This document shows positions 9,675-64,000 of a stretch of 64,000 bases of DNA, one piece after another. The notes beneath the pieces were generated by a model, which saw only the letters and a program-made list of their open reading frames with translations, made no database searches and was not told where the DNA came from. The position numbers and the translations under genes were made by a program. Each line of letters opens with the position of its first letter. Positions within the stretch are counted from its first letter, which is position 1. The DNA lies in contig JACRMQ010000006.1 of assembly GCA_016214905.1 (NCBI GenBank), positions 321,008 through 385,007 on the forward strand. The letters are read 5' to 3'. Source of the DNA: Ignavibacteriales bacterium. Its GTDB lineage: Bacteria; Bacteroidota; Ignavibacteria; UBA10030; SZUA-254.

Positions 9675-9734
9675 ATTTTAGTATATTAATCGGTTAAATT
9701 CATCATTCATAAATAATTCAGTAGGAGATTTATC

Positions 9735-12101
9735 ATGAAAAATGCAAGATTACTGCTTTTAATCTTCCTTGTTTTATTGCCCGCAATCGTTTATTCGCAG
9801 ATTCCACGGACAATATCATACCAAGGTGTTCTAACGGATGATTTAGGTAATCCGAAACCGAACGGACGATATTTATTTACCTTCAAATTGTATGACGTCA
9901 GTTCAGGAGGAGTGGCGCTTTGGACTCAGGCAGAAAGTCTTCAAGTAGAAAGAGGTCTATTTAGCTCTCTATTAGGACAAACACCTTTCGGTCCCTCCAT
10001 GTTATTTGATAAACAATATTGGTTAGGAATTCAAGTAAATGCTGATCTGGAACTTGCTCCTCGAGTTAAACTCTCCTCGGTTGGTTATAGCTTGAATTCG
10101 GCACATGCCGATACAGCTGAATATTCTCGTGTTGCACCGTCGGGTGGTGTAGCAGACAGCGCCAGAATCGCCGGAACAATTCCAAATAACAGTATTACCA
10201 GCGCAAAGATATTAAACGGCACAGTTCAGTTTGCAGACATTGCTCAAAATGGTGCCGCCGTCGATCAGATTATGAAATGGAACGGTGTTATCTGGACACC
10301 GAGGAATGACTCTGTTGGTACTTTAGGAGTCAGCAGTCAATGGACAACACTCGGCTCCGATATTTATTATAACCTTGGTAATGTTGGTATTGGTGATACA
10401 AACTATCCTAGTTACAAATTAGATGTATTACATACTGGATCAACGGGTATCCGGAGCCGTTCGAGCGCCAGTTTCTCAGTTGTTGATATAGATGCATTTA
10501 GTGGTGATGCTGCATTACGATTTCAGAAAGCCGGTATTGGCCAGTGGAATATCCGCAACCGCCCCAGTGACGATTATCTTGAAATATTTGAATTAGGCGG
10601 TGGTGGCAGTCGTATGGTAATACAGGATGCAACAGGAAATGTCGGGATCGGTGAAACCACAGCACCATCTTACAAATTAGATGTATTGCACGCTGGTTCA
10701 ACAGGTATCCGCAGCAGATCAAGTGCATCCTTCTCAGTCGTTGATATTGATGCAAATTCTGGCGACGCCGCATTACGTTTTGCTAAGGCTGGAGTTAACC
10801 AGTGGAATATTCGTAATCGTCCCGGTGATGATTATTTAGAAATATTTGAATTAGGTGGCGGCGGAAGTCGTATGGTGATCCAGGACGCGACCGGTAATGT
10901 CGGTATTGGTGAAACTACTTCACCGTCTTACAAATTGGATGTATTGCATGGTGGTTCAACAGGTGCTCGTATCAAATCATCATCCAGTTTCTCTGTCGTT
11001 GATATTGATGCCGCAAGTGGCGATGCAGCATTACGTTTCCAGAAAGCTGGTGTCAACATGTGGAACATCCGCAACCGTCCCAGTGATGATAATTTAGAAA
11101 TATTTGAATTAGGTGGCGGAGGAAGTCGTGTTGTAATTGAGGATTCTACAGGATTTTTCGGAATAAATACTAGTAATCCTACGGCTCAATTAGAGGTTAC
11201 GGCAGGTGCTACCAGAGGTATATATGGAACGTCAAGTATTTTATCTAATATAGATGGAGCCGTATATGGTAATAATACTGCAGGTCCTACTGCAGCGCTT
11301 GCAACACAGAATAATGGTATATACGCACATAGCACTGTAAGCGGTGGAGCCGCTGTTTTTGGGGACAATGGTTATAGTAATACTGTTGGATATGCAGGAT
11401 ATTTTGCAGGTCGTGTACACGTTAGCGGAACACTTTCAAAATCTGCCGGTTCTTTTAAAATCGACCATCCTATCGATCCAGAAAACAAATATCTTTCTCA
11501 CAGCTTCGTGGAAAGTCCGGATATGATGAATATTTACAATGGCAATATTGTAACAGATGCTACCGGTAAAGCCGTGGTATCACTGCCGGAGTATTTTGAA
11601 GCATTGAATATGGATTATCGTTATCAATTGACAGCCATTGGCTCTTTTGCTCAAGCAATCATTTCGAAAAAAGTACAGAATAACCAGTTTGAAATTGCAA
11701 CCAGTCTTCCCAATGTTGAGGTAAGCTGGCAGGTAACAGGTATCCGTAATGATGCTTATGCCAAGAAAAATCGTATTCCGAATGTTGAAGATAAAGAATC
11801 GGTGAACAGAGGTAAGTATTTAAATCCTGAGTCATTCAATTTACCGGCAACCCGAGGCATTGACTTTGCAGGTCAGACGGATGGATCCGTCTCGCAAACT
11901 CAAACGACCTCTATTCCGCAGCAGACTCAGCAAACAGTTATCGAAACCGGCGGCAGTCTAGATCAGGCGCCTGCGACTCAAACAGTTCCGAAATCAGTTG
12001 AGAACTCAGGAAGCGTTGCTAATACCGATGCAGTAAAGGCAGTAACAAAACCTGCTGATAACTCGGGCAGTGTTCTTGATACTCCGAATGATAAACGTTA
12101 A
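9735..12101 (+). CDS. Secreted tail-fibre-like repeat protein with an S/T/Q-rich C-terminal tail
   Basis: 788 aa with signal peptide MKNARLLLLIFLVLLPAIVYSQ. N-terminal segments resemble phage tail fibres (…ITSAKILNGTVQFADIA…). Three tandem 86-aa repeats follow (SYKLDVLH.GSTGIRSRSSASFSVVDIDA.SGDAALRF.KAG..WNIRNRP.DD.LEIFELGGGGSR.VI.D.TG). A conserved globular C-terminal block (FKIDHPIDPENKYLSHSFVESPDMMNIYNGNIVTDATGKAV) precedes a low-complexity tail. Confidence 0.75.
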   Translation: MKNARLLLLIFLVLLPAIVYSQIPRTISYQGVLTDDLGNPKPNGRYLFTFKLYDVSSGGVALWTQAESLQVERGLFSSLLGQTPFGPSMLFDKQYWLGIQVNADLELAPRVKLSSVGYSLNSAHADTAEYSRVAPSGGVADSARIAGTIPNNSITSAKILNGTVQFADIAQNGAAVDQIMKWNGVIWTPRNDSVGTLGVSSQWTTLGSDIYYNLGNVGIGDTNYPSYKLDVLHTGSTGIRSRSSASFSVVDIDAFSGDAALRFQKAGIGQWNIRNRPSDDYLEIFELGGGGSRMVIQDATGNVGIGETTAPSYKLDVLHAGSTGIRSRSSASFSVVDIDANSGDAALRFAKAGVNQWNIRNRPGDDYLEIFELGGGGSRMVIQDATGNVGIGETTSPSYKLDVLHGGSTGARIKSSSSFSVVDIDAASGDAALRFQKAGVNMWNIRNRPSDDNLEIFELGGGGSRVVIEDSTGFFGINTSNPTAQLEVTAGATRGIYGTSSILSNIDGAVYGNNTAGPTAALATQNNGIYAHSTVSGGAAVFGDNGYSNTVGYAGYFAGRVHVSGTLSKSAGSFKIDHPIDPENKYLSHSFVESPDMMNIYNGNIVTDATGKAVVSLPEYFEALNMDYRYQLTAIGSFAQAIISKKVQNNQFEIATSLPNVEVSWQVTGIRNDAYAKKNRIPNVEDKESVNRGKYLNPESFNLPATRGIDFAGQTDGSVSQTQTTSIPQQTQQTVIETGGSLDQAPATQTVPKSVENSGSVANTDAVKAVTKPADNSGSVLDTPNDKR
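10405..11180 (+). repeat. 3 x 258-bp in-frame tandem repeat inside CDS 9735-12101
   Basis: The anchor 'tacaaattagatgtattgca' recurs at 10413, 10671 and 10929, giving a period of exactly 258 bp. The encoded 86-aa units are ~90% identical, while the DNA copies are only ~75% identical with mostly synonymous differences. Confidence 0.85.
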
Positions 12102-12934: not shown

Positions 12935-14344
12935 ATGAGGAATGGAACAATGAATAATATTTATACTAAGTTCACGTGGGTGGTTTTATGCTTTATCGCT
13001 GTTGCATCTCTTAATGCGCAACCGAAGTACAGAACTTTCAGCCAATTCTCTTTAAGCGAGAAGAAAGCAAAAGCCGGTAAAGTTCTCAGCAGTAATTCGT
13101 CTTTTGTTTTTGGAAATGATGTTAGCGGAATAACTGTAAATGGTTTACATGCCCGGTTTAATTCCGCGATAATTGGTATCCTCGATTCAGGTGGTTTCAC
13201 ATCAATTGTAATTGGTGATAAAAGAAAAACAATCACCGCGAGCGGGCGGACAATTGCTGCAGGTGATTCTGTGATACTTACATTCAATCTGGAAAAGAAA
13301 GCTCCGGGCGCTCAGGCAAATTTCTGGTGGTGGGAACTGGATGGTAGTATGATCGGTGATAAACGCGAAGGACTTGCCGGTACTTTCGAAGGTATCTCAA
13401 TCCAACCTAATGGCGGTAACTTACTTGAATTTATTTACAAACGAATTGTACATCGTCCTCAGGGGATTGTTGTTGGAATGATGACCGATACAAATGATGT
13501 GGGGCGGATCAGATACAAAACAGCTGATCGAAAATTTTTCCCCCACTCGGGCGTAGCGCGTTGCTTTGATCGGATTAGCACCGGTTCTGCCATCACGCGT
13601 CCGTTCAATCGCGAATTGAAGAATCCGCATGTTAAAAAACATAATAACCATTTGCTGGGCGAAGTTCACGCGTTGAAACTTGCAGTGATTGCAAACGACT
13701 CCGGCGCAACTCAGCCCTTAGATACAACAGCATTGGGTGATTTAATATATAATGATCTCGGTAACCCAAGCGATCCGGGAAATGGATTAACGATCCGGCA
13801 ACTGATTTACCTCGTCGATTCTGCCCTTACATATTGCGACCATTTTGATTTGAATCCCGAAATTTACGCGAAGCTCGATACATGCGTCAGCAGAATCAAC
13901 CGTGCGTTTGATGGAGATTATATTGCTGTAAGCTTATTCCCGTTTGTCGTTGCAGGAACTCACTCAGTTGATGAATATTCATTCATTCATCCGAATCCCG
14001 CGGCGGCTCCGTTTACCAGACGTTCACACGATTATTCAATGTTGGATCAGCAGCCCGAACAAATTTCCTTATTACAGAATTACCCGAATCCCTTCAATCC
14101 GACTACAACGATCTCCTTCTCAATTGCTCAGGAGGGACGTGTTACATTGAAAGTATACAATATGCTTGGTCAGAATGTAGCCACGTTGCTGAATAACGAA
14201 GTTATTGATGAAGGTGAGCAGGAAATTGAATTTGACGCATCATCGCTGACAAGCGGTGTTTATTTATACAGAGTTGAAGTAACCGACATATCCAATCCCA
14301 CAAAGATGTTCACGCAAGTGAACAAAATGTTATTGGTTAAATAG
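12935..14344 (+). CDS. Secreted hypothetical protein with T9SS type A C-terminal sorting domain
   Basis: Signal peptide MNNIYTKFTWVVLCFIAVASLNAQ, with candidate start Met at 12935 or 12950. The C-terminal LLQNYPNPFNPTTTISF…KVYNMLGQNVATL…GVYLYRVEV is a T9SS CTD. The central ~350 aa match nothing I recognise. Confidence 0.7.
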   Translation: MRNGTMNNIYTKFTWVVLCFIAVASLNAQPKYRTFSQFSLSEKKAKAGKVLSSNSSFVFGNDVSGITVNGLHARFNSAIIGILDSGGFTSIVIGDKRKTITASGRTIAAGDSVILTFNLEKKAPGAQANFWWWELDGSMIGDKREGLAGTFEGISIQPNGGNLLEFIYKRIVHRPQGIVVGMMTDTNDVGRIRYKTADRKFFPHSGVARCFDRISTGSAITRPFNRELKNPHVKKHNNHLLGEVHALKLAVIANDSGATQPLDTTALGDLIYNDLGNPSDPGNGLTIRQLIYLVDSALTYCDHFDLNPEIYAKLDTCVSRINRAFDGDYIAVSLFPFVVAGTHSVDEYSFIHPNPAAAPFTRRSHDYSMLDQQPEQISLLQNYPNPFNPTTTISFSIAQEGRVTLKVYNMLGQNVATLLNNEVIDEGEQEIEFDASSLTSGVYLYRVEVTDISNPTKMFTQVNKMLLVK

Positions 14345-38930: not shown

Positions 38931-39034
38931 GGGGTCAAGTCCTGCGCAACAAGAAATTTCCGAACCCCGCCAGGTCCGGAAGGAAGCAACGGTAGGAAGT
39001 AAATCTTGTGTGACGTAGGGTAGCTTGACCTCTT
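38931..39034 (+). ncRNA. ffs: Signal recognition particle RNA (4.5S-type, small bacterial SRP RNA)
   Basis: Contains the near-universal domain IV motif CCAGGUCCGGAAGGAAGCAACGGUAG. The 5' GGGGUCAAGU pairs with the 3' GCUUGACCUC to form the closing helix, and the RNA ends in a U-run. Length is ~104 nt. Confidence 0.75.
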
Positions 39035-53250: not shown

Positions 53251-53720
53251 GATTATGCCCAAAACGATCTGTTTTTGAACAAAGCGATTTTAATCCCTCA
53301 AAATTATGCAATAATTGAGGATGTTAAAAAATGATTGATTTAGGGGGTAATGAAAAACGATGGGAGAAACAAAAGGATTTAAGACCCTCCGAGAAATAAT
53401 AATAAGAAGTTGAGTAGAAAGGCGAAACATAGCTTGACAATAACCGACCAGTTTTGTAATTTGCATAACACGATTTTGATGGGTTGAAACAAGGGAACTT
53501 ACGCTTATGGATTTGGTGGATAGAGAGAATGAATGTTTGTAGTGCGTGAGTATGATGATGAGCTTTTCGAGAAAAGATAAATATAAAACACCTGATGAAA
53601 AATATATGTTACTTAAATCCGATAAATAATGGATAATCTAAAAAAAATAAAAACGCAATATTGCGAAATTACAGATGTTCCGCAGCCATTTGTTCACGAC
53701 TGATAGCGCGAGAAAAATCG

Positions 53721-54938
53721 ATGAACATGATGACAGTTCTCTTAACATTCTTTCTACTCGTTAGTCAAGCGAGTGTTTGCGATGCGCAGTGGGTACAATC
53801 TTCAAACATCAATAGCAGTTTTGTCAGCAGCTTTACCAGCAAGGATGCAGATCTGTTCGCTGGTACGTTTCTGGAAGGAGTATTCTTTTCAACGAGCAGC
53901 GGATCAACTTGGACTGCGGTTAACGATGGCATAACCACTTTGCGCATTCGTAGTCTTGCTGCGAGCTCGATGAATCTCTTCGCTGGAAGTGAAGGCGGAG
54001 GTATCTTTCTGTCAACCAATCACGGCACACAATGGACTTCCATCAATACGGGTCTCACGAATACAAGTGTACGGGAAATAGCCACCAGCGGGGTGAATCT
54101 TTTTGCTGGAACTGATGGCGGGGGAGTCTTTTTCTCCTCGAATACCGGGGCTAACTGGATTCCGGCGAATACAGGTCTTACAAGTCTTTACATCGAGTCG
54201 TTTCTAATTAACGGCACAGATATATTTGCAGGTACTTCCGGCGGTGTATTCCTTTCGACCAACAATGGTACAAGCTGGGTTCCTGTCAATAATGGGCTCA
54301 CCAGTCCCGGTATAAACGCTCTTGCAGTGTCTGGCACGAACCTCTTTGCCGGAACGAATTCTGGGATATTCCTTTCAACCAACGATGGCACAACCTGGAC
54401 TCCGGTTAGTGCAGGATTGACAACGACAAGTATCGAGGCTCTCGCAACATGCGGTACAGACGTTTTTGCTGGCACTTTCGGCGGTGGTGTGTTCCTGTCT
54501 ACTAACAACGGCACGAGTTGGAATGCGGTAAATGCTGGTTTGCCAGCAAATGCAATTATCCTTAGTCTTCTAGTTAGCGACAGTACCCTTCTTGCAGGTA
54601 CTGGTGGCTCTGGCGTTTGGCAGCGGCCCCTGTCGCAAATGATAACCAGTGTTCCAAGAAACGATGAGGCGCCTCTGCAATTTAGGCTCGAACAAAACTA
54701 TCCAAACCCGTTCAACCCAAACACAACAATCATATATCAACTCTCAACACAAAGCCACGTTACACTCAAAGTCTTCGATATACTTGGCAGGGAAGTTGTA
54801 ACGCTTGTAAACGGAATCGAAGAGCCAGGTTACAAATCGGTGCAGTTCGATGCAAGTAAATTATCAAGCGGGATATATTATTACCGACTGCAAGCTGGCA
54901 ACTATATCGAAACAAAAAAATTATTATTAATAAGGTAA
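53721..54938 (+). CDS. T9SS-secreted beta-propeller-like repeat protein (BNR/Ycf48-like 'GG[VI]F.STN.GT.W' repeats) with type A C-terminal sorting domain
   Basis: ATG at 53721 gives signal peptide MNMMTVLLTFFLLVSQASVCDAQ. ~7 repeats follow (GGGIFLSTNHGTQWTSINTGLT, GGVFFSSNTGANWIPANTGLTS, GVFLSTNNGTSWVPVNNGLTS …). The C-terminal LEQNYPNPFNPNTTIIYQL…KVFDILGREVVTL…GIYYYRLQAGNY is a T9SS CTD. Confidence 0.75.
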   Translation: MNMMTVLLTFFLLVSQASVCDAQWVQSSNINSSFVSSFTSKDADLFAGTFLEGVFFSTSSGSTWTAVNDGITTLRIRSLAASSMNLFAGSEGGGIFLSTNHGTQWTSINTGLTNTSVREIATSGVNLFAGTDGGGVFFSSNTGANWIPANTGLTSLYIESFLINGTDIFAGTSGGVFLSTNNGTSWVPVNNGLTSPGINALAVSGTNLFAGTNSGIFLSTNDGTTWTPVSAGLTTTSIEALATCGTDVFAGTFGGGVFLSTNNGTSWNAVNAGLPANAIILSLLVSDSTLLAGTGGSGVWQRPLSQMITSVPRNDEAPLQFRLEQNYPNPFNPNTTIIYQLSTQSHVTLKVFDILGREVVTLVNGIEEPGYKSVQFDASKLSSGIYYYRLQAGNYIETKKLLLIR

Positions 54939-55676: not shown

Positions 55677-55968
55677 ACAATTTAATAACAGTATACCTGC
55701 GGCTCACAGCATTAGCAACAACATTCCCTTTATGACTAAGATAAATTGTAGGGGTCGGCTCAATATGCCACCTTCAGTGGAAATTGATCACTAATAGTTC
55801 GGCGGTACACTGCGTTGCTACTGCACACGTTTCCGCAACCATTCGTTCTCCTCATAACGCGGAAGATTAATGATGATCATAAAATCTCAAAAATACTTTT
55901 AATCCTTGCGAATCTTGGGGATTCTTCGTATATTATTTCAACATTTTGATACAGAATTGGAGTTTTTA

Positions 55969-56193
55969 ATGAAAAAAGGTATTCATCCCCAATATAAAAA
56001 ATCGGTTGTTTCCTGCGTTTGCGGGTCAACTTTTGAAACACGCTCATCAGCCGGAAACCTGAAAATAGAAATATGCGATAAGTGTCATCCATTCTTCACA
56101 GGCAAACAGAAGCTAATGGATTCTGCCGGACGTGTTGAACGCTTCAACAAGAAGTACGGCAAAAAAACACAAGAGGCGCCCGCAACAGCGTAA
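55969..56193 (+). CDS. rpmE: 50S ribosomal protein L31
   Basis: [64 protein letters not shown] contains the Zn-ribbon CxxC…CxxC. GGAG lies 6 nt upstream of the ATG. The ORF-track start at 55906 is an upstream extension that I reject. Confidence 0.85.
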
Positions 56194-56222
56194 GGGGAAT
56201 TCACATCTCATCACAATTATTA

Positions 56223-56260
56223 AACGGAATTCTGAGGAATCGGGATTCCGTTTTTTCTTT
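56223..56260 (+). terminator. Rho-independent terminator after rpmE
   Basis: AACGGAAT-tctgaggaatcggg-ATTCCGTT followed by TTTTTCTTTT. Confidence 0.6.
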
Positions 56261-56271
56261 TAAGTGATCCT

Positions 56272-57522
56272 ATGCAGATAACTATCTTCGAAGACGAATC
56301 TTATAAAAACTTCCTTCCGCTTGTATACCTCAGACCGGTTTACGATCTGCGGTGCGGCGCATTCACTCTCAGGGAAAAATTTGAGAAATATTTTTCTCCT
56401 CATAAAATTAATTATGATATGAGAGCAGAGTTGTTTCATCTCTATAACCAAAACAACTCCTCTAAAAATATTAATCAAATCCCTAAAGATGATACCTGGT
56501 TTGTTAATGGGAGAGTTGTTGCAAACTCCATACTGAAAAAACATATAGTAAACTTACCTAAAGAAGAAAAAGTTTTAATTAACGGAAAAGATATTGTAGC
56601 GGTATTTCTGAAAAAAGAATCACTGAAACAATTCGATCAAGAAAGTGGTACTCTCAGCAAAAACCGATTTGAGGGTTTGCGGACTGAAAAGGTGGATGTT
56701 GATACAGTATCGTACCCGTGGGATCTGGTTCATAAAACTTCAGATGAAATAATCGCCCATAGTGCTTTTCTCAAGAAAAAGAAAAATAAGATTGAAGGAA
56801 AAGTCAATAGTGGTGTTCATCTTTTGAATCGTAAAGATATATTCATTGGCAAAAATTCCATAATCAAACCGGGCGCAGTACTTGATGCCGAAAAGGGACC
56901 TGTCATCATCGGCAATAATGTAACTGTTATGTCGAATGCTGTTATTGAAGGACCCGCATTTGTGGGCGACAACTCTGTTATAAAGATTGGCGCAAAAATT
57001 TATCACGGCACATCGATAGGCGAATGGTGCAAAGTTGGCGGCGAAGTTGAGGCATCGGTGATTCAATCTTATTCAAACAAACAGCACGAAGGATTTTTAG
57101 GTCATTCTTATTTAGGAAGCTGGGTGAATCTGGGCGCCGATACGAACACAAGCGATTTAAAAAATAACTACAGCACGGTGCGTGTACAAATCGATGGTAA
57201 AACAATTGATTCAGGTCAGCAATTTGTAGGATTGACTATCGGCGATCATTCTAAATCAGGAATCAATATGATGTTCGATACGGGAACGGTTGTCGGTGTT
57301 TCATGTAATTTGTATGGAGCGGGACTTCCGCCTAAATCGATTCCATCTTTCGCGTGGGGCGGTGATAAATCATATCAGGTATATGATATTGAAAAGAGTA
57401 TAGAGACAATGAGAAAAGTAATGGCGCGAAGGAATGTTGTAATGTCGGATCATTATGAAAAACTTGTGAGAGAGATATTTATCAGCACGATGAAAGATAG
57501 AAAGAATTTTGGTTTAAAATGA
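56272..57522 (+). CDS. Putative sugar nucleotidyltransferase-like protein with C-terminal left-handed beta-helix (hexapeptide repeats)
   Basis: 416 aa. The N-terminal MQITIFEDESYKNFLPLVYLRPVYDLRCGAFTLREK resembles a nucleotidyltransferase-like Rossmann start. The C-terminal half has hexapeptide repeats (IIGNNVTVMSNAVIEGPAFVGDNSVIKIGAKIYHGTSIGEWCKVGGEV…). Confidence 0.55.
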   Translation: MQITIFEDESYKNFLPLVYLRPVYDLRCGAFTLREKFEKYFSPHKINYDMRAELFHLYNQNNSSKNINQIPKDDTWFVNGRVVANSILKKHIVNLPKEEKVLINGKDIVAVFLKKESLKQFDQESGTLSKNRFEGLRTEKVDVDTVSYPWDLVHKTSDEIIAHSAFLKKKKNKIEGKVNSGVHLLNRKDIFIGKNSIIKPGAVLDAEKGPVIIGNNVTVMSNAVIEGPAFVGDNSVIKIGAKIYHGTSIGEWCKVGGEVEASVIQSYSNKQHEGFLGHSYLGSWVNLGADTNTSDLKNNYSTVRVQIDGKTIDSGQQFVGLTIGDHSKSGINMMFDTGTVVGVSCNLYGAGLPPKSIPSFAWGGDKSYQVYDIEKSIETMRKVMARRNVVMSDHYEKLVREIFISTMKDRKNFGLK

Positions 57523-58916
57523 ATTCAGAAACTCGGGAATCAGTCAACACCGATCCGCCTGTAGCAGAGATCCAAACGCTGTATGCCGGTCCGCGCGGAA
57601 CTGCTGTAAAAATATTGAATCGGGTTGAACGCACAGATTCTTATTTGGATAAATTATTAGATGTAGAACTTCGATCTAAAGATATATCGGATTTGGATAA
57701 AAGTTTGCTCGCTGAGATTGTGCATGGCGTATTACGTTGGCAGGGGAGATTGGATTGGGTTTTGAACGGATTCACACATGGTAATTTTTCCAAATCCGAG
57801 GTAAACGTGCGAAACGCACTCAGGGTTGCGCTTTACCAAATCTTATTTTTAAATCAGGTTCCGCATTATGCCGCTGTAAATGAAGCAGTCGAATTTATCA
57901 AGCGTATCCGCGGAGATAAATTCTCAGGTTTTGTGAACGCGGTTCTGCGCAACGTCATCAGAACGCTTGATGGAATACATTATCCGAATCCCGATGAAGA
58001 TTTAGCCCAGTATCTCGCGGTTTATTATTCGCATCCTCTCTGGATGGTGAGAAGGTGGCTTCCGCGTTTCGGAAAGGAGGAGGTTGAAAAACTTCTAACG
58101 GCGAATAATGAGATCCCGGGTTTGACGCTGAGAATCAATAAAATGAAAATCACACCCGCCGAATTTTTATCGCTTCTTGAAAAACAAAATGTACAATTTC
58201 AAGGATCAACATATATCGATTATTTTGTAAAAGTTAGAAGTCTTTCCGGAATATCACAAATGAATATTTTTCAGCAAGGATTTTTCACGATACAAGATGA
58301 GAGCGCGGCATTACCTGTTTTGCTTCTTGATCCGCATCCCGGAGAACGGGTGATAGATATGTGCGCTGCCCCCGGCGGTAAAACAACTTTTATCGCAGAG
58401 ACGATGAAAAACGAGGGAGAAATTTTAGCTGTAGATAAATACGATACGAAATTAAACATGTTAAAGATGAGTTGCGAGCGGCTTGGGATTCAAAATGTTC
58501 AACTTCTTGTGGCAGATTCGACAACGATTGACACTCAATTAGCCGACCGGATTTTAGTGGATGCGCCATGTTCGGGATTAGGAACGCTGCGGAAGAAACC
58601 CGATATAAAATGGAAGCGCGAACCTGAAGACATAAAGCGAATGGTACGGCAGCAATACGCGCTCCTGGAAAGCGCGGCGCGCATGTTAAAACCGGGGGGT
58701 GTTCTTGTTTACAGCACATGTACCACGGAACCGGAAGAAAATTCTGAATTAGTGAAATCGTTTATCAATGCCCATCCTGAATTTTCTATTGAATCTGCGA
58801 GTGATTTTGTTAACAAATCTGTCGTGAGCGCAGAAGGATTTATCGAAACAATGCCGCACAGGCACCAGATCGATGGTTCGTTTGCCGCACGGCTTCGGAA
58901 GAAACAATCAGAATAA
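57519..58916 (+). CDS. rsmB: 16S rRNA (cytosine967-C5)-methyltransferase (NusB-like domain + RsmB/Sun MTase)
   Basis: 465 aa. An N-terminal NusB-like domain is followed by SAM motifs VIDMCAAPGGKT and DAPCSGLGT, plus the catalytic Cys context TCT. Confidence 0.8.
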   Translation: MNSETRESVNTDPPVAEIQTLYAGPRGTAVKILNRVERTDSYLDKLLDVELRSKDISDLDKSLLAEIVHGVLRWQGRLDWVLNGFTHGNFSKSEVNVRNALRVALYQILFLNQVPHYAAVNEAVEFIKRIRGDKFSGFVNAVLRNVIRTLDGIHYPNPDEDLAQYLAVYYSHPLWMVRRWLPRFGKEEVEKLLTANNEIPGLTLRINKMKITPAEFLSLLEKQNVQFQGSTYIDYFVKVRSLSGISQMNIFQQGFFTIQDESAALPVLLLDPHPGERVIDMCAAPGGKTTFIAETMKNEGEILAVDKYDTKLNMLKMSCERLGIQNVQLLVADSTTIDTQLADRILVDAPCSGLGTLRKKPDIKWKREPEDIKRMVRQQYALLESAARMLKPGGVLVYSTCTTEPEENSELVKSFINAHPEFSIESASDFVNKSVVSAEGFIETMPHRHQIDGSFAARLRKKQSE

Positions 58917-58933
58917 TAATTAAAGGAAATTTC

Positions 58934-60163
58934 ATGAAAGCGGTTATTAAGCCAAAGCCACAAATGTATCAGGCGTGGCAAAAAGGTTTTCAGCTTGTTG
59001 AGCGCGAAATCCCTGTCGTTAAAAATTCAAATGATATTCAATTTAAAGTTGTCGCTGCCGGCATATGCGGCACTGATGTTGGAATTTATAATTCAAAAGA
59101 TTCACTCAAGAACAGCATGGCGAATATTTCACCGGAAGGTGTAACGATTGGTCATGAATTTTGCGGAAGGATTACCGATGCCGGAGTGAAAGCGAAACTG
59201 CGACTGGCTGATCAGGTGATTCAAAAATCAAAAGAGTACAAAGAAATTAAAAAGTTCGTGAAGAACCGGTCGGCAGCGCAAGTGGCGAAAGATAAAACGT
59301 TCATCGACTATCTGAACAAAAATTTCATCGCAACCGCAGAGATGCACATAACCTGCGGCGAATGCGCTCAATGTAAGCTTGGCGATTATCATGTATGCAC
59401 GAAGACGGTAATTCGTGGATTGCACGGTGATGGATCGTATGCTGAATACATAGTGCTTCCTGCCGAGAATATTTTAATTTTCAAAAATGGTGAAATCCCT
59501 GAAGAGATTGTAGGATTCATGGATGCGATCGGGAACGCGGCACATACGGTACAAGTTCTCAAATCGATTGAAGGCAAAACAGTTGCTGTGCTGGGACTCG
59601 GAGTAATAGGTTTAATGTCGGTTGCGATTGCAAAAGGTGCGGGTGCGAAAAGAATTCTTGTAACCGATGCATCGCACGGTGAAAATACACATGAGAAATT
59701 AGAAGCTCTCAAATTTAAGATGGCTCGCTCGCTTGGGGCTGATGAATGTTTCGATGTTTCAATCCCGGAAGAGAAAAAAGAATTTTATAAAGTTGCCAAA
59801 GAGCAGAATCATGGCGCAGGTGTTGATGCCGTGCTTGAAATGTCCGGAAGCTATCATGCATACGACGATGCTTTCAATGTTGTCAGAATGGGCGGAGAGA
59901 TCGCTCTACTAGGTTTAACCAGCGGAACGCTCCCTGTAGATTTCTCCAAGCATGTAATCTTTCCCGGTATCACAATTCACGGAGTTATAGGTAGGCGAGT
60001 TTGGTCGACCTGGGATATTATGACTGATATACTTAAGAAAGGTCTGGCCAAGCGGTTCATGAAAGCCGGTTTCGTAACTCATCAAGTCCCGTTAGTCGAT
60101 TACGATAAAGGTTTTCAAGCTATTATCAATGGAGATGCTCTTAAAGTTTTATTACGACCATAG
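58934..60163 (+). CDS. tdh: L-threonine 3-dehydrogenase-like Zn-dependent MDR dehydrogenase carrying a ~60-aa Lys-rich insertion
   Basis: 409 aa. AAGICGTDVGIYN…GHEFCG…HITCGECAQCKLGDYHVC…GLGVIGLMSVAIAKGAGA aligns with E. coli Tdh (AICGTDVHIYNW, GHEY, HITCGHCRNCRGG). The segment DAGVKAKLRLADQVIQKSKEYKEIKKFVKNRSAAQVAKDKTFIDYLNKNFIATAEM has no counterpart in canonical Tdh. Confidence 0.65.
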   Translation: MKAVIKPKPQMYQAWQKGFQLVEREIPVVKNSNDIQFKVVAAGICGTDVGIYNSKDSLKNSMANISPEGVTIGHEFCGRITDAGVKAKLRLADQVIQKSKEYKEIKKFVKNRSAAQVAKDKTFIDYLNKNFIATAEMHITCGECAQCKLGDYHVCTKTVIRGLHGDGSYAEYIVLPAENILIFKNGEIPEEIVGFMDAIGNAAHTVQVLKSIEGKTVAVLGLGVIGLMSVAIAKGAGAKRILVTDASHGENTHEKLEALKFKMARSLGADECFDVSIPEEKKEFYKVAKEQNHGAGVDAVLEMSGSYHAYDDAFNVVRMGGEIALLGLTSGTLPVDFSKHVIFPGITIHGVIGRRVWSTWDIMTDILKKGLAKRFMKAGFVTHQVPLVDYDKGFQAIINGDALKVLLRP

Positions 60164-60295
60164 AATCGGATTATTCGTGATCATCTATGAAGTTTTATCG
60201 CTTTTAGTTATATTGTAGGCACTATCAATGTGCCGCCCACGTTCTTCAAAAATCTCTGTAATTTATTCAAAACTCAAATATTTCTCACTCGCGGG

Positions 60296-60670
60296 ATGAT
60301 AAAAAGTATCGGTATAGATATCGTGGGGATCGAGAAATTTAAGCATGTTGAGAATGATAAGAATTTCTTAGGAGAGATTCTAACCGGACAAGAAATCTCA
60401 TTGATTCGAGACAGTAAAAACAGTACAGCTTATATCGCAAAAATATTCGCTCTAAAAGAAGCTGTAATGAAATCTCTCGGTTGGGGATTGACGTACGGAT
60501 CATACTGGCACGATATCGAGGTGTTGGATGATGGTCAAATTAAGCTGACCGGAATCTTGAAAGTGCAGGCAGAGAAAATGCAGGTGTCAAAGATTCATAG
60601 TTCATATTCAAATTCAAAAAAATATATTACAGCATTTGTACTTCTTGAAGATTATAAGGAGAATTCATGA
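60296..60670 (+). CDS. acpS: Holo-ACP synthase-like 4'-phosphopantetheinyl transferase (AcpS family)
   Basis: MIKSIGIDIVGIEKF…AKIFALKEAVMKSLG matches the AcpS motifs GxDxxE and (F/W)aaKEAxxKalG. The ORF track offers an earlier Met at 60230. Confidence 0.65.
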   Translation: MIKSIGIDIVGIEKFKHVENDKNFLGEILTGQEISLIRDSKNSTAYIAKIFALKEAVMKSLGWGLTYGSYWHDIEVLDDGQIKLTGILKVQAEKMQVSKIHSSYSNSKKYITAFVLLEDYKENS

Positions 60671-62370
60671 GTCATATAGGTTCATACGAAGAAAGATATA
60701 AATCATTTAACTGGAAACAGTCGGAGGAGGAATTAGAGTACGGTAAAAACGGAATGTATAATATTGGTTACTATTGCAGTGACCGAGTTTGCGAAAAGGG
60801 CAATGGTAAAAAATTAGGTTTGATCTGGGAAGGATTCACAGGTGAAGTGAAGAAATATAGTTATGATGACATCCGTGTTTACAGTAATACGATTGCCAAG
60901 TTTTTACAGGATACGGGAGTTAATGTGGGCGACAGAGTTTGCCTCTTCATGGATAAGGTCCCTGAATTGTATATCGGTTTTATTGGAATACTTAAAATGG
61001 GTGGAATTACACAGCCGTTATTTTCTGCATTCGGCGAAGAAGCTTTATTCACTCGTCTTGATGATGCAAAAACAAAAGCTATTATGATTCAAAAGAAACA
61101 TTTACCCAAAGTCAGAAGGATCAAAGATAAACTTCCCAATTTGACAAAAATTATTGTGATCGATGCTGATGAAGCAGCAACGCCGCAAATAAATGAGATT
61201 CATTTCTGGATGGAAAAAGCTCCGAAGGTTGAAAAATTTGATATCGTGAAAGTCGGTCCGGAAGTGCCATCGGTCATTCACTATACGTCGGGGACAACCG
61301 GCAAACCGAAAGGTGCGCAGCATGCTCATTCATCGATTATCGCACAGTACATTACGTCTAAATGGGTTCTCGATTTACAACCGGATGATATTTACTGGTG
61401 CACTGCCGATCCGGGTTGGGTTACAGGAACATCGTACGGAATCATTGGTCCGTGGGCGTTGGGTGTAACTCAGGTTGTACTCGATGCAGGTTTTGGCGCG
61501 GAAAAATGGTATGCGTTTATGCATAAATATAAAGTTTCCATGTGGTACTCGGCGCCGACTGCCATTCGTTTGCTGATGAAAGAAGGAATAGAAGCTGTTA
61601 AGAAATATGATCTTTCAACGTTACGTCATTTGGCAAGCGTGGGTGAGCCGCTGAACGCCGAAGCAGTTGTATGGTCTGAAAAAGCATTCGGAAAAATGTT
61701 TCATGATACTTATTGGCAAACCGAAACCGGCGCGATGATGATTACAAATTACCCGGGAATGAAAATTAAACCGGGTTCAATGGGAAAACCATTCCCCGGT
61801 ATTACGGCAACAGTTCTCAATACAAAAACCTATGAGCCGATCACTTCTGCCGGTATAGTCGGACTCATTGCTATCAAACCGGGTTGGCCCTCAATGATGC
61901 GCTCTTACTGGAATAACAAAACAACATACGATAGTAAGTTCAAAAACGGTTGGTATATTTGCGGTGACCGCGCAAGTATTGATAACGAAGGATACTTTTG
62001 GTTTGTTGGTCGCGATGACGATGTGATTAACACGGCAGGACATTTAGTAGGACCGTTTGAGATCGAATCGGCATTACTTGAACATAAAGCTGTTGCAGAG
62101 TCAGCCGCAGTGGGAAAACCCGATCCTGTAAATATGGAAGTAGTGAAAGCATTCATCGCTCTGAAACCCGGTTTCGATCCGAGTGGAGATATGGAGCTTG
62201 ATATTATGAACTTCATAAGGAAAAAACTTTCTCCATTGGCTATGCCGCAGGAGATCGAGTTTGTCCCGTCGCTTCCTAAGACAAGAAGCGGTAAAATTAT
62301 GCGCCGACTTCTCCGTGCTAAAGAGTGGGGAGAAGAAATCGGAGATACATCAACGTTAGAAAACGACTAA
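60667..62370 (+). CDS. Acetyl-CoA-synthetase-like AMP-forming acyl ligase (short form, 567 aa)
   Basis: AMP-binding motif YTSGTTGKPKG. Acs-like blocks DIYWCTADPGWVTGTSY, YWQTETGAMMIT and LPKTRSGKIMRRLLR…IGDTSTLEND (cf. E. coli Acs LPKTRSGKIMRRILRKIA…LGDTSTLAD). The start overlaps the acpS-like stop by 4 nt. Confidence 0.75.
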   Translation: MSHIGSYEERYKSFNWKQSEEELEYGKNGMYNIGYYCSDRVCEKGNGKKLGLIWEGFTGEVKKYSYDDIRVYSNTIAKFLQDTGVNVGDRVCLFMDKVPELYIGFIGILKMGGITQPLFSAFGEEALFTRLDDAKTKAIMIQKKHLPKVRRIKDKLPNLTKIIVIDADEAATPQINEIHFWMEKAPKVEKFDIVKVGPEVPSVIHYTSGTTGKPKGAQHAHSSIIAQYITSKWVLDLQPDDIYWCTADPGWVTGTSYGIIGPWALGVTQVVLDAGFGAEKWYAFMHKYKVSMWYSAPTAIRLLMKEGIEAVKKYDLSTLRHLASVGEPLNAEAVVWSEKAFGKMFHDTYWQTETGAMMITNYPGMKIKPGSMGKPFPGITATVLNTKTYEPITSAGIVGLIAIKPGWPSMMRSYWNNKTTYDSKFKNGWYICGDRASIDNEGYFWFVGRDDDVINTAGHLVGPFEIESALLEHKAVAESAAVGKPDPVNMEVVKAFIALKPGFDPSGDMELDIMNFIRKKLSPLAMPQEIEFVPSLPKTRSGKIMRRLLRAKEWGEEIGDTSTLEND

Positions 62371-62425
62371 ATAAAATTATCAATAGCTAACTGTCAATTA
62401 TTAATTATCAATTATTGGAGCTACA

Positions 62426-62680
62426 ATGTCTGAAGATATTAAGAAAATGATTATCGATTATATCAAAAAAGAATACCTCGAAGAAGATTCAGGGGTAACA
62501 GTTAATGAAAGTACGAAGCTCATATCAAGCGGAATCGTCGATTCGTTCTCGATGGTTTCGTTGAAAATGTTTTTAGAGAAAAAATTTTCCATTAAAATTC
62601 CTGATGATAAAGCGACACCCGAGGCATTTGATTCTGTGAATAACATAATGAATCTCCTAAAAGAATATACAAAAAGTTAA
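62426..62680 (+). CDS. Acyl carrier protein (stand-alone, non-FAS context)
   Basis: 84 aa, acidic, with a 4-helix pattern. The phosphopantetheine attachment context is LISSGIVDSFSMVSL (DSx). A Shine-Dalgarno-like GGAG lies upstream. Confidence 0.7.
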   Translation: MSEDIKKMIIDYIKKEYLEEDSGVTVNESTKLISSGIVDSFSMVSLKMFLEKKFSIKIPDDKATPEAFDSVNNIMNLLKEYTKS

Positions 62681-62689
62681 GGAGCAATT

Positions 62690-63937
62690 ATGGCATATAG
62701 TGAAAAAGCAAAATCGTTTTACGATGATACTTTGAAAAATATCCGTCAGGACGGATTATTTAAAGAAGAGAGATTTATAGAATCACCTCAGGCAGCTAAT
62801 ATTAAAGTTGAGTTTCCACTCGGTGCACAGCAGAAACAAGTATTGAATTTCTGTGCGAATAATTATCTCGGCTTGTCGAGTCATCCTGAAGTTGTAAAAG
62901 CCGCGCATGATGGGCTTGATTCTCGCGGCTACGGTATGTCATCTGTGCGTTTTATCTGCGGAACGCAGGATATTCATCATGAATTAGAAGATAAATTGAC
63001 AAAGTTCCTGGGCACAGAAGATACAATTTTATTTCCATCATGCATGGAAGCAAACGCCGCAATATTTGAAGTGATGCTTGATAAAGAAGACGCTATGATT
63101 TCTGATCGGCTCGTTCACGCTTCGATTGTTGACGGTATGCGTCTGAGCAAAGCGCAACTTTTCAATTACAAGCACAACAACATGGCTCATCTTGAAGAGA
63201 AACTTCAGGAAACTCAGAACTGTCGCTTTCGACTCATCATCACTGATGGCGTGTTTTCAATGGATGGAGATCTTGCAAAGCTCGATGAAATTTGTAACCT
63301 TGCAGAAAAATATGATGCGATGGTTATGGTGGATGATTCACACGCCTCAGGATTCATCGGAAAAACAGGCCGTGGTACGCACGAACATTTTAATGTCATG
63401 GGTCGCGTTGATGTAATTACAACAACACTCGGTAAAGCGCTCGGTGGTGCTACGGGCGGTTGTGTTAGTGGACGAAAAGGTATTGTTGATCTATGCCGTC
63501 AACGTGCCCGACCATATTTATTTTCAAATACAGTCCCGCCGGTTGTTGTTGCTGCCTCGATAAAAGTAATTGATTTAATTTCAGACACAACTGAACGACG
63601 GGATAAGCTTGAACGAAATACAAAATATTTCCGTGAGAAGATGACCAAGGCAGGACTAGACATCAAAGAAGGAGAAACACCGATTGTACCGGTTATGTTA
63701 TACAATGCGAAACTTGCCCAGGACGTAGCCCGCGATATGTATACAGAAGGAATTTATGTTATCGGTTTCTTCTTCCCTGTGGTAGCACAAGGGCAGGCAC
63801 GAATCCGAACGCAGATTTCTGCCGATCATGAGATCGAGCATATAGATAAAGCTGTTGCAGCATTTACAAAAGTCGGAGCAAAGTATAATATCCTCGGTAA
63901 GAAGCGCGATGAAATAATCGCGATGTATGGTATGTAA
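62690..63937 (+). CDS. kbl: 2-amino-3-ketobutyrate CoA ligase (glycine C-acetyltransferase) family alpha-oxoamine synthase
   Basis: 415 aa, near-collinear with E. coli Kbl. Matching blocks are GLFKEERFI, LNFCANNYLGLSSHP, SVRFICGTQDIHHELE, VDDSHASGFIG, PLP-Lys TTTLGKALGG, RPYLFSN and RIRTQISADH. Confidence 0.85.
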   Translation: MAYSEKAKSFYDDTLKNIRQDGLFKEERFIESPQAANIKVEFPLGAQQKQVLNFCANNYLGLSSHPEVVKAAHDGLDSRGYGMSSVRFICGTQDIHHELEDKLTKFLGTEDTILFPSCMEANAAIFEVMLDKEDAMISDRLVHASIVDGMRLSKAQLFNYKHNNMAHLEEKLQETQNCRFRLIITDGVFSMDGDLAKLDEICNLAEKYDAMVMVDDSHASGFIGKTGRGTHEHFNVMGRVDVITTTLGKALGGATGGCVSGRKGIVDLCRQRARPYLFSNTVPPVVVAASIKVIDLISDTTERRDKLERNTKYFREKMTKAGLDIKEGETPIVPVMLYNAKLAQDVARDMYTEGIYVIGFFFPVVAQGQARIRTQISADHEIEHIDKAVAAFTKVGAKYNILGKKRDEIIAMYGM

Positions 63938-63944
63938 GAATTAA

Positions 63945-63990
63945 TTTCGAAATCCTAATTCAGAAATTTTAAAATTTTAGGATTTGTCAG
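63945..63990 (+). terminator. Possible terminator hairpin after kbl
   Basis: AAATCCTAA-(18 nt)-TTAGGATTT, a 9-bp AT-rich stem followed by a weak T-run. Confidence 0.3.
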
Positions 63991-64000
63991 CCAGAGGCTG

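Follow-up and report, generated by a model that had tools for sequence, protein, structure and literature searches.

Results

Organization of the locus

Five open reading frames lie on the + strand between positions 58934 and 63937 of the window, the 64,000-nucleotide stretch of Ignavibacteriales DNA analysed here, and an ORF check on the sequence confirmed that the five co-directional genes described in the original prediction are real. Profile searches likewise bore out their assignment to the Tdh, AcpS, Acs, ACP and Kbl families, with the Tdh-like protein falling below the Tdh equivalog cut-offs. The features are as follows.

58934–60163, + strand: Tdh-family Zn-dependent dehydrogenase, 409 aa
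60296–60670, + strand: AcpS-type 4'-phosphopantetheinyl transferase (PPTase), 124 aa from ATG, with an alternative GTG start at 60230
60667–62370, + strand: LigA, Acs-derived adenylate-forming ligase, 567 aa
62426–62680, + strand: dedicated acyl carrier protein (ACP), 84 aa
62690–63937, + strand: KblA, ACP-associated glycine C-acetyltransferase (2-amino-3-ketobutyrate ligase) paralogue, 415 aa
63950–63985, + strand: AT-rich 9-bp hairpin in the spacer 3' of kblA

As read from the sequence, the dehydrogenase gene follows rsmB after 17 nt and is separated from the PPTase gene by 132 nt; the PPTase stop and the ligase start overlap by 4 nt (ATGA), and spacers of 55 nt and 9 nt separate the ligase from the ACP gene and the ACP gene from kblA. 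RNA folding gives the hairpin an energy of −13.8 kcal/mol (z = −2.56). No terminator-like sites were found on the + strand from 56253 to 64000, and the upstream glmU-like gene and rsmB are probably on the same transcript as the module defined below. Within Ignavibacteria the entire neighbourhood is syntenic, rpmE, the glmU-like gene and rsmB included, and the gene order is identical in Ignavibacteriales down to 66% Tdh identity (range 66–96%); synteny of the glmU-like gene and rsmB with the module is limited to Ignavibacteria.

Properties of the encoded proteins

The 84-aa ACP is not AcpP: it scores 28.7 on TIGR00517, the AcpP equivalog, against a cut-off of 70.45, and the acidity of its helix II is far lower than in AcpP. 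The phosphopantetheine-attachment residue, Ser40, lies in the motif GIVDSFSM, and D39, S40 and F41 together with helix II are invariant in the family. The PPTase scores 68.1 on TIGR00516 (acpS; cut-off 59.8) and also matches Pfam ACPS, and it may be the housekeeping AcpS enzyme.

Over its full length LigA shares 47% identity with the 572-aa Acs of PDB 9g79, and it scores 762.8 on NF003313, the acetate–CoA ligase equivalog (cut-off 729). The acetate pocket residues V310, T311, V386 and W414 are invariant in 55 sequences, as is K609 among LigA sequences, and the adenylation motifs are kept together with R584, which contacts the CoA 3'-phosphate. Acyl range is set by W414 (PMC10455477); at Acs W413, beside this pocket Trp, LigA has Tyr or Phe, and in a tandem LigA duplicate at locus L047 the pocket W414 is itself replaced by Leu. 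Two further changes lie in a loop which, for the thioester step, enters the active site: Leu takes the place of Acs R526 in all 54 of 54 LigA sequences, and Ala or Gly that of S523. Acs depends on this conserved Arg in its CoA step. Mutation of the Arg equivalent to R526 in the Acs of M. thermautotrophicus lowers kcat 130–326-fold, and the Ala variant at this position is not saturable with CoA. We propose that LigA is an acetate:[ACP] ligase, although it could still use CoA, as the equivalog cut-off is passed and R584 is kept.

KblA scores 608.7 on NF005394 (cut-off 460) and 225–343 bits on SPT models against cut-offs of 500–670, and is about 56% identical to solved Kbl structures. The catalytic and carboxylate residues N50, H136, S185, D210, H213, T241, K244 and R368, whose roles we take from PMC9814548, are invariant. 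Found only in KblA are the signature F112M, A133R, N135V, E160H, L264C, S268A and D334N and a conserved C-terminal tail of 12–13 aa; mean identity is 73% across phyla and 56–58% to canonical Kbl. By these comparisons KblA is a tight, distinct clade and a specialised Kbl paralogue. N135, which neighbours the catalytic His and does not vary in canonical Kbl, is Val in KblA, but the equivalent position is Ser, Ile or Asn in various BioF/Kbl-type enzymes, so that it does not mark specificity cleanly. In close relatives (L001, L003, L007 and other loci) a canonical kbl, referred to as KblB, directly follows kblA, and the two are probably co-transcribed in Ignavibacteria. In the source genome the KblB gene would fall beyond the window end.

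The Tdh-like protein scores 262.6 and 239.7 bits on the NCBIfam Tdh models against cut-offs of 380 and 458, and carries a 46-aa four-helix insert at residues 85–130. The Zn ligands C45, H74, E75 and C141/C144/C147/C155 are present, and the best PDB folds for its AF2 model (pLDDT 86.6; 95–98 in the insert) are Tdh structures, with TM 0.87–0.89 normalised to the target. The 409-aa protein is found at 62–96% identity across many Ignavibacteria, and in Ignavibacteriales it accompanies the module as an accessory component; at the same place upstream of the module, a bona fide Tdh of canonical length is encoded in WOR-3 and a Tdh-family protein in Zixibacteria.

Distribution of the module

The ACP family was found in 551 or more species genomes representing about ten phyla, with hosts in Ignavibacteria, WOR-3, Zixibacteria, Aminicenantes/Acidobacteriota, Calditrichota, Eisenbacteria, Thermoanaerobaculia, Chrysiogenales, KSB1 and others. 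The bacteria bearing the module number in the hundreds and are mostly uncultured.

KblA lies directly 3' of the ACP gene in 74 of 75 loci (median gap ~22 nt) and LigA at most 500 nt upstream of it in 57 of 73, the ligase not being adjacent in the other 16; AcpS is directly upstream of LigA in 34 of the 55 informative loci, representing several phyla. In a reverse test, starting from 104 metagenomic genes with the KblA motif DRLVHASIVDG, the ACP gene was upstream in 99, and LigA was adjacent in 43 of 49 metagenome loci; two metagenome loci have AcpS immediately before KblA, without an intervening ACP. The conserved unit is AcpS–LigA–84-aa ACP–KblA. The arrangement is far beyond chance and recurs in many phyla, unlike the flanking genes, which vary from phylum to phylum. 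The pairwise identities of LigA, ACP and KblA, compared as matrices, are correlated (r = 0.65–0.77), and the three appear to have been inherited together. No acetyl-ACP consumer conserved beside the module was found among the compared loci; a glycine/sarcosine-oxidase-like oxidoreductase of the DAO family follows kblA in 10 loci of WOR-3.

Adjacency (74/75, 99/104 and 57/73 loci), matrix correlation and family signatures together give strong comparative support to the suggestion that the ligase, the dedicated ACP, the AcpS-type PPTase and the Kbl-type synthase would work together. Of the full tdh-acpS-acs-acp-kbl order, AcpS–LigA–ACP–KblA does recur across phyla, but a Tdh-family gene is upstream of the module in only 22 of 66 loci, from three phyla.

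The description of the locus as a Tdh/Kbl pair split by genes inserted between them is misleading: KblA is a specialised paralogue, KblB lies downstream, in relatives at a place just past the window end, and in most phyla the module has no adjacent Tdh.

Discussion

A proposed carrier-protein-bound route

The module points to an undescribed carrier-protein-bound route joining acetate, glycine and threonine. The interpretation that we tentatively favour is that the module encodes the Tdh/Kbl threonine–glycine–acetyl pathway in a form that depends on a carrier protein. The AcpS-type transferase would turn the private 84-aa ACP into its holo form; LigA, derived from a short-type acetyl-CoA synthetase, would adenylate acetate and pass the acetyl group to the phosphopantetheine thiol of the ACP rather than to CoA; KblA would interconvert acetyl-S-ACP (in place of acetyl-CoA) and glycine with 2-amino-3-ketobutyrate; and the upstream Tdh-family enzyme, where encoded, would interconvert 2-amino-3-ketobutyrate and L-threonine with NAD(H). 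Because the acetate pocket is unchanged and the KblA residues are of the Kbl type, the expected product would be 2-amino-3-ketobutyrate and threonine, and the same features argue against a novel long-chain or signalling aminoketone.

The condensing direction, in which acetate, glycine, ATP and NADH would yield threonine, is in our view the more likely one. An ATP-charged private carrier could push the unfavourable Claisen condensation, and a private ACP would keep the route apart from the CoA-dependent catabolic KblB/Tdh pair, much as fatty-acid synthesis on ACP is kept apart from beta-oxidation on CoA. Threonine formation by coupled Kbl and Tdh is possible, and reversible, according to work cited in PMC3439479. 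The I. album genome is without thrA, lysC and asd (PMC3362086), and a MAG labelled I. album (L064) carries LigA–ACP–KblA–KblB. The direction is nevertheless made ambiguous by the apparent kblA/kblB co-transcription in Ignavibacteria, by the WOR-3 DAO gene and by the yeast extract that I. album requires (PMC3362086): opposite directions for kblA and kblB would amount to a futile cycle, and the yeast extract makes threonine import possible. A DAO gene after kblA in WOR-3 fits catabolism.

A different explanation, which we consider unlikely although it deserves some weight, is that Tdh oxidises threonine and KblA with holo-ACP cleaves 2-amino-3-ketobutyrate to glycine and acetyl-ACP; either LigA would then run backwards, converting acetyl-ACP, AMP and PPi to acetate and ATP, or the acetyl-ACP would go to some other consumer and LigA would be an extra, acetate-fed source of it. 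Thiolysis is the classical, favourable direction of Kbl, the position of kblA next to kblB, with probable co-transcription in Ignavibacteria, fits the same direction for both, and the glycine/sarcosine-oxidase-like gene in the 10 WOR-3 loci points the same way. Many host lineages are, moreover, amino-acid-dependent, amino acids being the nitrogen source of I. album (PMC3362086). A private carrier could perhaps reach the high acetyl-thioester ratio needed for a backward AMP-forming ligase, but nearly all known ligases of this kind that are paired with carrier proteins work in the loading direction, the described ligase–ACP–oxoamine-synthase sets are all biosynthetic, and no acetyl-ACP consumer is conserved beside the module. 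Many of these genomes, moreover, already encode a CoA-dependent canonical Kbl, so that a second route of catabolism would call for a particular justification.

The favoured pathway would likewise be altered if the acid loaded by LigA were, for instance, glycolate or propionate, or if the amino acid used by KblA were not glycine. Along the lines of the original prediction, the product would then be a different beta-hydroxy or beta-keto amino acid, of which 4-hydroxythreonine for vitamin B6 is an example, or an aminoketone such as a precursor of a pyrazine or a signal. We regard this as distinctly improbable, since the four defining residues of the Acs acetate pocket do not vary among 55 LigA sequences, KblA keeps the carboxylate triad N50/H213/R368 and Kbl-level overall similarity, and the module is preceded by a bona fide Tdh in WOR-3 and a Tdh-family gene in Zixibacteria. 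The KblA substitutions F112M, L264C, S268A and N135V are in its favour, notwithstanding the variability of position 135, as are the Tyr or Phe for Acs W413 and the L047 duplicate, whose loss of W414 implies that the LigA family is able to shift acyl specificity. It is also consistent with the spontaneous decarboxylation of 2-amino-3-ketobutyrate to aminoacetone, which takes place within minutes.

It is very unlikely that there is no special pathway, with LigA an ordinary acetyl-CoA synthetase, the PPTase the housekeeping AcpS, KblA a CoA-dependent isoenzyme and the ACP unrelated in role, or only structural or regulatory, all being neighbours through conserved synteny. In favour of this reading, the NCBIfam equivalog cut-off of the ordinary enzyme is passed by LigA, by KblA and by the PPTase, and the whole neighbourhood, with rpmE, the glmU-like gene and rsmB, is syntenic within Ignavibacteria. 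Against it, the triad occurs in about ten phyla with unrelated flanks, the ACP–KblA link is reciprocal, the Acs-invariant R526 is absent from all 54 LigA sequences, KblA coexists with canonical Kbl as a clade of its own, set apart by its signature and tail, and LigA, ACP and KblA are apparently co-inherited.

Comparison with known systems

BioF, an oxoamine synthase, can take its acyl group from an ACP thioester, pimeloyl-ACP, but it uses the housekeeping AcpP and alanine. CitC, the citrate lyase acetate:SH-ACP ligase, acetylates the thiol of a dedicated carrier, CitD, with ATP; CitC is not an ANL enzyme, however, and the prosthetic group of CitD is of another kind. Neither BioF nor CitC/CitD is homologous in architecture to the module. 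The tdh-kbl pair of E. coli represents the same two enzyme families, and the catalytic residues of Kbl are identical in KblA. That pair consists of two adjacent, CoA-using genes, whereas KblA is a separate paralogue associated with an ACP, a ligase and a PPTase, the module coexists with KblB, and the ignavibacterial Tdh-like protein has an insert and fails the equivalog cut-offs. LigA resembles the short-type AMP-forming Acs (PDB 9g79; family PRK04319) in its pocket, adenylation motifs, K609 and R584, but differs in the replacement of R526 by Leu and of S523 by Ala or Gly, and in having its gene beside those of an ACP and AcpS.

The original prediction knew of no described pathway with this gene order, and our literature search found no published description of an AcpS–LigA–ACP–KblA module, but its logic has a precedent in the AasR–AcpR–Spt system of Caulobacter and other Rhodobacteria, made up of a specialised acyl-ACP synthetase, a specialised ACP and a serine palmitoyltransferase, in which AasR acylates AcpR alone and not CoA, Spt prefers acyl-AcpR, and the rationale is that free acid is diverted into one pathway (PMC9386255). 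In both systems an ANL-superfamily ligase, a small dedicated non-AcpP carrier and a PLP-dependent alpha-oxoamine synthase are encoded together, and that rationale is common to the two. They differ in that AasR is FadD-like and long-chain whereas LigA is Acs-like with an acetate pocket, in that SPT joins serine and a C16 chain decarboxylatively to give a sphingolipid base whereas the synthase of the module is Kbl-like, and in that AcpS, and often Tdh, are found inside the module cluster, in other host phyla. We read the module as a new version of the known ligase–ACP–oxoamine-synthase scheme.

Organization of the cluster

The five co-directional open reading frames of the cluster were all found exactly where the original prediction had placed them on the + strand:

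58934-60163, + strand, Tdh-like dehydrogenase, 409 aa
60296-60670 (alternative GTG start at 60230), + strand, AcpS-type phosphopantetheinyl transferase (PPTase), 124 aa
60667-62370, + strand, LigA, Acs-like adenylate-forming ligase, 567 aa
62426-62680, + strand, ACP, dedicated acyl carrier protein, 84 aa
62690-63937, + strand, KblA, Kbl-like enzyme, 415 aa

HMM scans bear out the predicted families of the Kbl, the ligase and the PPTase, which score above model cut-offs (for the ligase, that of the short-type Acs model), whereas the dehydrogenase falls below both Tdh cut-offs. The view that a Tdh/Kbl pair has here been split by three genes does not hold, as the Kbl beside the ACP is one of two paralogues and the canonical one, KblB, follows it in relatives. 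To simplify the presentation below, we will refer to AcpS-LigA-ACP-KblA as the module, with the Tdh-family gene as an accessory.

Read from the sequence, the gap from rsmB to tdh is 17 nt and that from tdh to the PPTase gene 132 nt. The PPTase and ligase genes overlap by 4 nt (ATGA), and gaps of 55 nt and 9 nt separate the ligase gene from the ACP gene and the ACP gene from kblA respectively. The sole + strand terminator-like site in 55800-64000 is a strong hairpin at 56222-56253 (14 pairs followed by a T-run) situated behind rpmE, the L31 gene, and no further + strand terminators were found from 56253 to the end of the window. Two genes lie between this hairpin and tdh:

56272-57522, alternative-GlmU gene, upstream of rsmB
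57519-58916, rsmB, overlapping the GlmU-like gene by 4 nt

Because no + strand terminator follows 56253, the module genes may share a transcript that begins further upstream, and the GlmU-like gene and rsmB may be co-transcribed with them. Matches in a sigma-70 promoter scan were no more frequent than in shuffled sequence. The spacer after kblA can fold into an AT-rich hairpin (63950-63985; 9-bp stem, 18-nt loop, -13.8 kcal/mol, z = -2.56) that lacks a T-run.

Rfam searches around the module, in the window and in 11 loci of different phyla, gave neither a riboswitch nor a leader. In the Zixibacterial locus L072 a TPP riboswitch (2467-2557) is situated ~4 kb upstream of tdh-acpS-ligA-acp-kblA and upstream of four ORFs which, judged from the riboswitch alone, are taken to be thiamine genes; it is probably unrelated to the module. 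The bacterial small SRP RNA (RF00169) is present at 38933-39033 of the window (75 bits) and at 14217-14315 of locus L047 (70 bits). Elsewhere in the window, 53661-54938 encodes a protein of 425 aa in which a ~40-residue motif (G..F.ST..G..W..VN.GL) recurs many times; its C-terminus (NYPNPFNPNTTI...) resembles a type IX secretion sorting domain.

Reciprocal association of ACP and KblA

Homologues of the 409-aa Tdh-like protein, 62-96% identical, are numerous in Ignavibacteriales and 'Bacteroidota' MAGs, and all five genes are present in identical order in the contexts of three relatives (96%, 76% and 66% identity). A scan of one genome per species with two ACP peptide patterns, GIVDSFSM and VSLKMFLE, shows that an ACP relative is encoded in at least 551 species genomes (among at least 600 stretches matched). 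The best 80 of these loci, onto which the window proteins were mapped, come from Ignavibacteria, WOR-3, Zixibacteria, Aminicenantes and other Acidobacteriota, Calditrichota, Eisenbacteria, Thermoanaerobaculia, Chrysiogenales and KSB1, with a few MAGs under other labels. The neighbourhoods among these best 80 loci are as follows.

Genes neighbouring the ACP gene in the best 80 of at least 551 loci
Kbl gene within 800 nt downstream of ACP, same strand: 74/75 (median gap ~22 nt)
LigA within 500 nt upstream of ACP: 57/73
LigA within 10 kb upstream of ACP: 66/73
AcpS gene immediately upstream of LigA: 34/55
Tdh-family gene upstream, same strand: 22/66

The original prediction had proposed a database search for co-occurrence of these genes, and both the adjacency of ACP and Kbl and the proximity of LigA now support the idea that ligase, ACP and Kbl act together. 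Unbiased clustering of all ORFs in the loci revealed no other widely conserved neighbour, and the flanking genes vary from phylum to phylum. LigA, ACP and KblA each have ~72% mean identity across phyla, and their pairwise-identity matrices correlate (r = 0.65-0.77); these patterns of sequence identity fit a co-inherited and strongly constrained unit.

For a reverse test that does not depend on the ACP, metagenome contigs were scanned at the DNA level for DRLVHASIVDG, a motif specific to KblA. An ACP gene is located just upstream in 99 of the 104 matches having enough upstream sequence, and LigA is adjacent in 43/49. Together with the 74 of 75 loci in the forward direction, this makes the ACP-KblA association reciprocal. 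Two of the five exceptions are unrelated enzymes (34-36% identity). At a third, L087, a 252-aa ORF lies between a divergent ACP (47% identity) and KblA, bringing the ACP-KblA spacing to ~1.1 kb. The remaining two, L123 and L144, are metagenomic and belong to one high-GC lineage; here an AcpS-type PPTase gene immediately precedes the gene with the KblA signature, without an ACP gene in between. When LigA-ACP and ACP-KblA gene fusions were looked for in the loci, the single candidate, at L078, was rejected as its translation has frameshift errors from a noisy assembly. At L046, which has no adjacent ligase, another loading enzyme was sought upstream, and the genes there encode the unrelated SdhA and SdhB.

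KblA and KblB

KblA is a full-length match to two Kbl models (NF005394, 608.7, cut-off 460; TIGR01822, 597.6, cut-off 493) and shares ~56% identity with Kbl enzymes of known structure; a look-up of its exact sequence gave no match. KblB (~403 aa; 619.5 bits on TIGR01822) shares 59% identity with KblA. Its gene comes immediately after kblA in Ignavibacteria, just past the end of the window, and several other phyla also have it at a distance of up to 10 kb. Examples are:

L001, 15217-15476, KblB
L003, 15065-16276, KblB
L007, 11656-12861, KblB

The KblA enzymes of different phyla have 73% mean identity among themselves and 58% to KblB. Eight residues, N50, H136, S185, D210, H213, T241, R368 and the PLP lysine K244, do not vary among 57 KblA sequences; of these, H136 has a catalytic role, and N50, H213 and R368 bind the carboxylate of the substrate (PMC9814548). 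Ten substitutions (Y108F, S109P, F112M, A133R, N135V, E160H, A179I, L264C, S268A and D334N) and a conserved C-terminal tail of 12-13 residues, ILGKKxxEIIxMYG[ML], are found in KblA and are absent from KblB and from reference Kbl enzymes. Because the catalytic residues are kept alongside this private signature, we propose that KblA is catalytically competent as a Kbl-type enzyme and has co-evolved with some partner, which to judge from the sequences would most simply be the ACP. The obligate ACP adjacency, substitutions such as A133R and N135V, and the C-terminal tail argue indirectly against use of acetyl-CoA by KblA. N135V was also considered as a clean marker of altered amino-acid specificity and was rejected, as at this position BioF/Kbl-type enzymes vary between Ser, Ile and Asn.

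LigA

LigA exceeds the cut-off of the short-type Acs model NF003313 (762.8, cut-off 729) and falls below those of TIGR02188 (504.9, cut-off 724.95) and NF001208 (495.4, cut-off 657); its identity is 47% with the 572-aa Acs of PDB 9g79 and 37% with the Salmonella enzyme, the numbering of which is used here for pocket and Arg residues. Across 54-55 LigA sequences the acetate pocket (V310, T311, V386 and W414) and the catalytic K609 do not vary, except for one Ile in place of V386. Which acyl groups Acs accepts is set by W414, a position occupied by Gly in medium-chain enzymes (PMC10455477). As the acetate pocket of Acs is kept, including W414, the acid used by LigA is most likely acetate. A tandem LigA duplicate at L047:6427-8151, adjoining the LigA at 8236-9954, keeps Leu at the position of R526 (see below), has lost the pocket Trp (W414 to Leu) and has PPDGVTG in place of the DPGWVTG of LigA; it may act as a LigA-like ligase on a bulkier acid.

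Acs relies on a set of Arg residues (Se R191, R526 and R584) to bind CoA and form the thioester. In LigA this set is broken at R526, which is Leu in 54/54 sequences, and Acs S523 is replaced by Ala or Gly. R584 is retained and invariant (54-55 sequences), and Se R191 falls in a segment missing from short-type enzymes. R526 is one of three conserved Acs Arg residues, and in the M. thermautotrophicus Acs its replacement cut kcat 130-326-fold, with CoA saturation being impossible for the Ala variant. An invariant change of R526 to Leu in the thioester-step loop would be expected of an enzyme that has switched its thiol acceptor, without amounting to proof.

ACP, PPTase and the Tdh-like protein

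The ACP matches several ACP/DltC models weakly, has a conserved putative attachment Ser and conforms to a four-helix carrier protein of ~80 aa. It scores 28.7 on the AcpP equivalog TIGR00517 (cut-off 70.45), and it lacks the acidic recognition helix: helix II is DSFSMVSLKMFLEKKF as against DSLDTVELVMALEEEF in E. coli AcpP, and the ACP has 12 basic residues to the 5 of AcpP. In the ACP family neither the predicted phosphopantetheine site, D39-S40-F41, nor any residue of helix II varies. We infer that fatty-acid synthase enzymes are unlikely partners of this ACP. Its best family match, ACP_for_OlsHI, was set aside, as the score is far below the cut-off and OlsH, according to the OlsH paper, does not require an ACP. 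The PPTase has an AcpS domain (TIGR00516, 68.1, cut-off 59.8; TIGR00556, 76.9, cut-off 45.35). With E. coli AcpP and the E. coli and B. subtilis AcpS as queries, no second carrier protein or PPTase was found in the window and the loci, a small DNA sample.

The Tdh-like protein scores 262.6 (cut-off 380) and 239.7 (cut-off 458) on the two Tdh equivalogs. This 409-aa form is the upstream Tdh-family gene product of Ignavibacteria, while that of WOR-3 is a bona fide Tdh of canonical length (TIGR00692, 465.1, cut-off 458.35) and the one encoded at the same position in Zixibacteria is 44-48% identical to the WOR-3 enzyme. Both the catalytic Zn ligands (Cys/His/Glu) and the structural ones (a four-Cys lobe) are present. 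The AlphaFold model (mean pLDDT 86.6, pTM 0.84) has an MDR fold, with the Tdh structures 2dq4, 2dfv and 5kia as top Foldseek matches (TM 0.87-0.89 normalised to target, 29-30% identity). An insert at residues 85-130 is modelled as four short helices (pLDDT 95-98), and we would guess that it serves as a docking surface for KblA or ACP.

A proposed pathway and its direction

The simplest reading that uses every gene is a four-step scheme, in which AcpS would turn the ACP into holo-ACP, LigA would load it with acetate, KblA would interconvert acetyl-ACP plus glycine with 2-amino-3-ketobutyrate, and Tdh would connect 2-amino-3-ketobutyrate and threonine. Synthesis is favoured by the fact that all known ligase-ACP-oxoamine-synthase sets are biosynthetic, and by the ability of coupled Kbl and Tdh to make threonine, as cited in PMC3439479. 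It is also favoured because the Ignavibacterium album genome is without thrA, lysC and asd (PMC3362086), and a MAG labelled I. album (L064) has LigA-ACP-KblA-KblB. Cleavage is favoured by the adjacency of kblA to the canonical kblB, by the amino-acid dependence of the host lineages, and by a glycine/sarcosine-oxidase-like gene after kblA in WOR-3. This gene, for an FAD-dependent DAO-family oxidoreductase, immediately follows kblA at 10 loci including L017:11630-12778, those checked being WOR-3; the protein's scores, 155.7 bits for SoxB and 113.1 for ThiO, are below the cut-offs of both family models, and it may connect the module with glycine oxidation. Whichever way the pathway runs, a private carrier could allow an acetyl-thioester ratio different from that of the CoA pool.

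We consider less likely than not the more specific reading that the module carries out ATP-driven, ACP-dependent L-threonine synthesis from glycine and free acetate (LigA to acetyl-ACP, KblA to 2-amino-3-ketobutyrate, then Tdh), replacing or supplementing the aspartate/homoserine pathway in many uncultured anaerobic lineages such as Ignavibacterium album, with the private carrier providing both a thermodynamic push and insulation from the CoA-dependent catabolic Kbl.

Implications and comparison with known systems

If LigA and KblA use the private ACP, then a CoA-dependent pair familiar from textbooks has a twin that depends on a carrier protein. This twin is conserved at ~72% identity across roughly ten phyla, and automated annotation labels every part of it an ordinary housekeeping enzyme. 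It would be a second, short-chain example of the recently recognised 'specialised ACP + synthetase + oxoamine synthase' scheme, and LigA would be the first Acs-derived acetate:[ACP] ligase. The module may explain threonine, glycine and acetate handling in the amino-acid-pathway-poor Ignavibacteria, WOR-3 and Aminicenantes. For these bacteria, which are abundant in sediment and groundwater, metabolic reconstructions would be altered, and an engineering route from acetate and glycine to threonine would be available.

Public annotation gives each part of the module an ordinary name, and a search of the literature on Kbl, Tdh, ACP and acetyl-ACP combined found no description of it. By sequence comparison, the module is widespread and strongly conserved, with a chemistry that is predicted. 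It is distinct from the plain Tdh-Kbl pair, and it is not a plain Acs since R526, a defining Acs feature, is missing from LigA. The closest likeness is to the described AasR-AcpR-Spt system, where an ANL ligase, a dedicated ACP and an oxoamine synthase are likewise co-encoded; there AasR acylates AcpR only, not CoA, and Spt prefers acyl-AcpR (PMC9386255). However, the synthase of that system is an SPT and its ligase is FadD-like and long-chain, whereas here the synthase is Kbl-like, scoring below the cut-offs of the SPT models (342.6, 276.8 and 224.8 against 640, 500 and 670), and LigA is Acs-like with a small-pocket Trp rather than FadD-like. By analogy, the module would work like the AasR-AcpR-Spt system without being a member of it.
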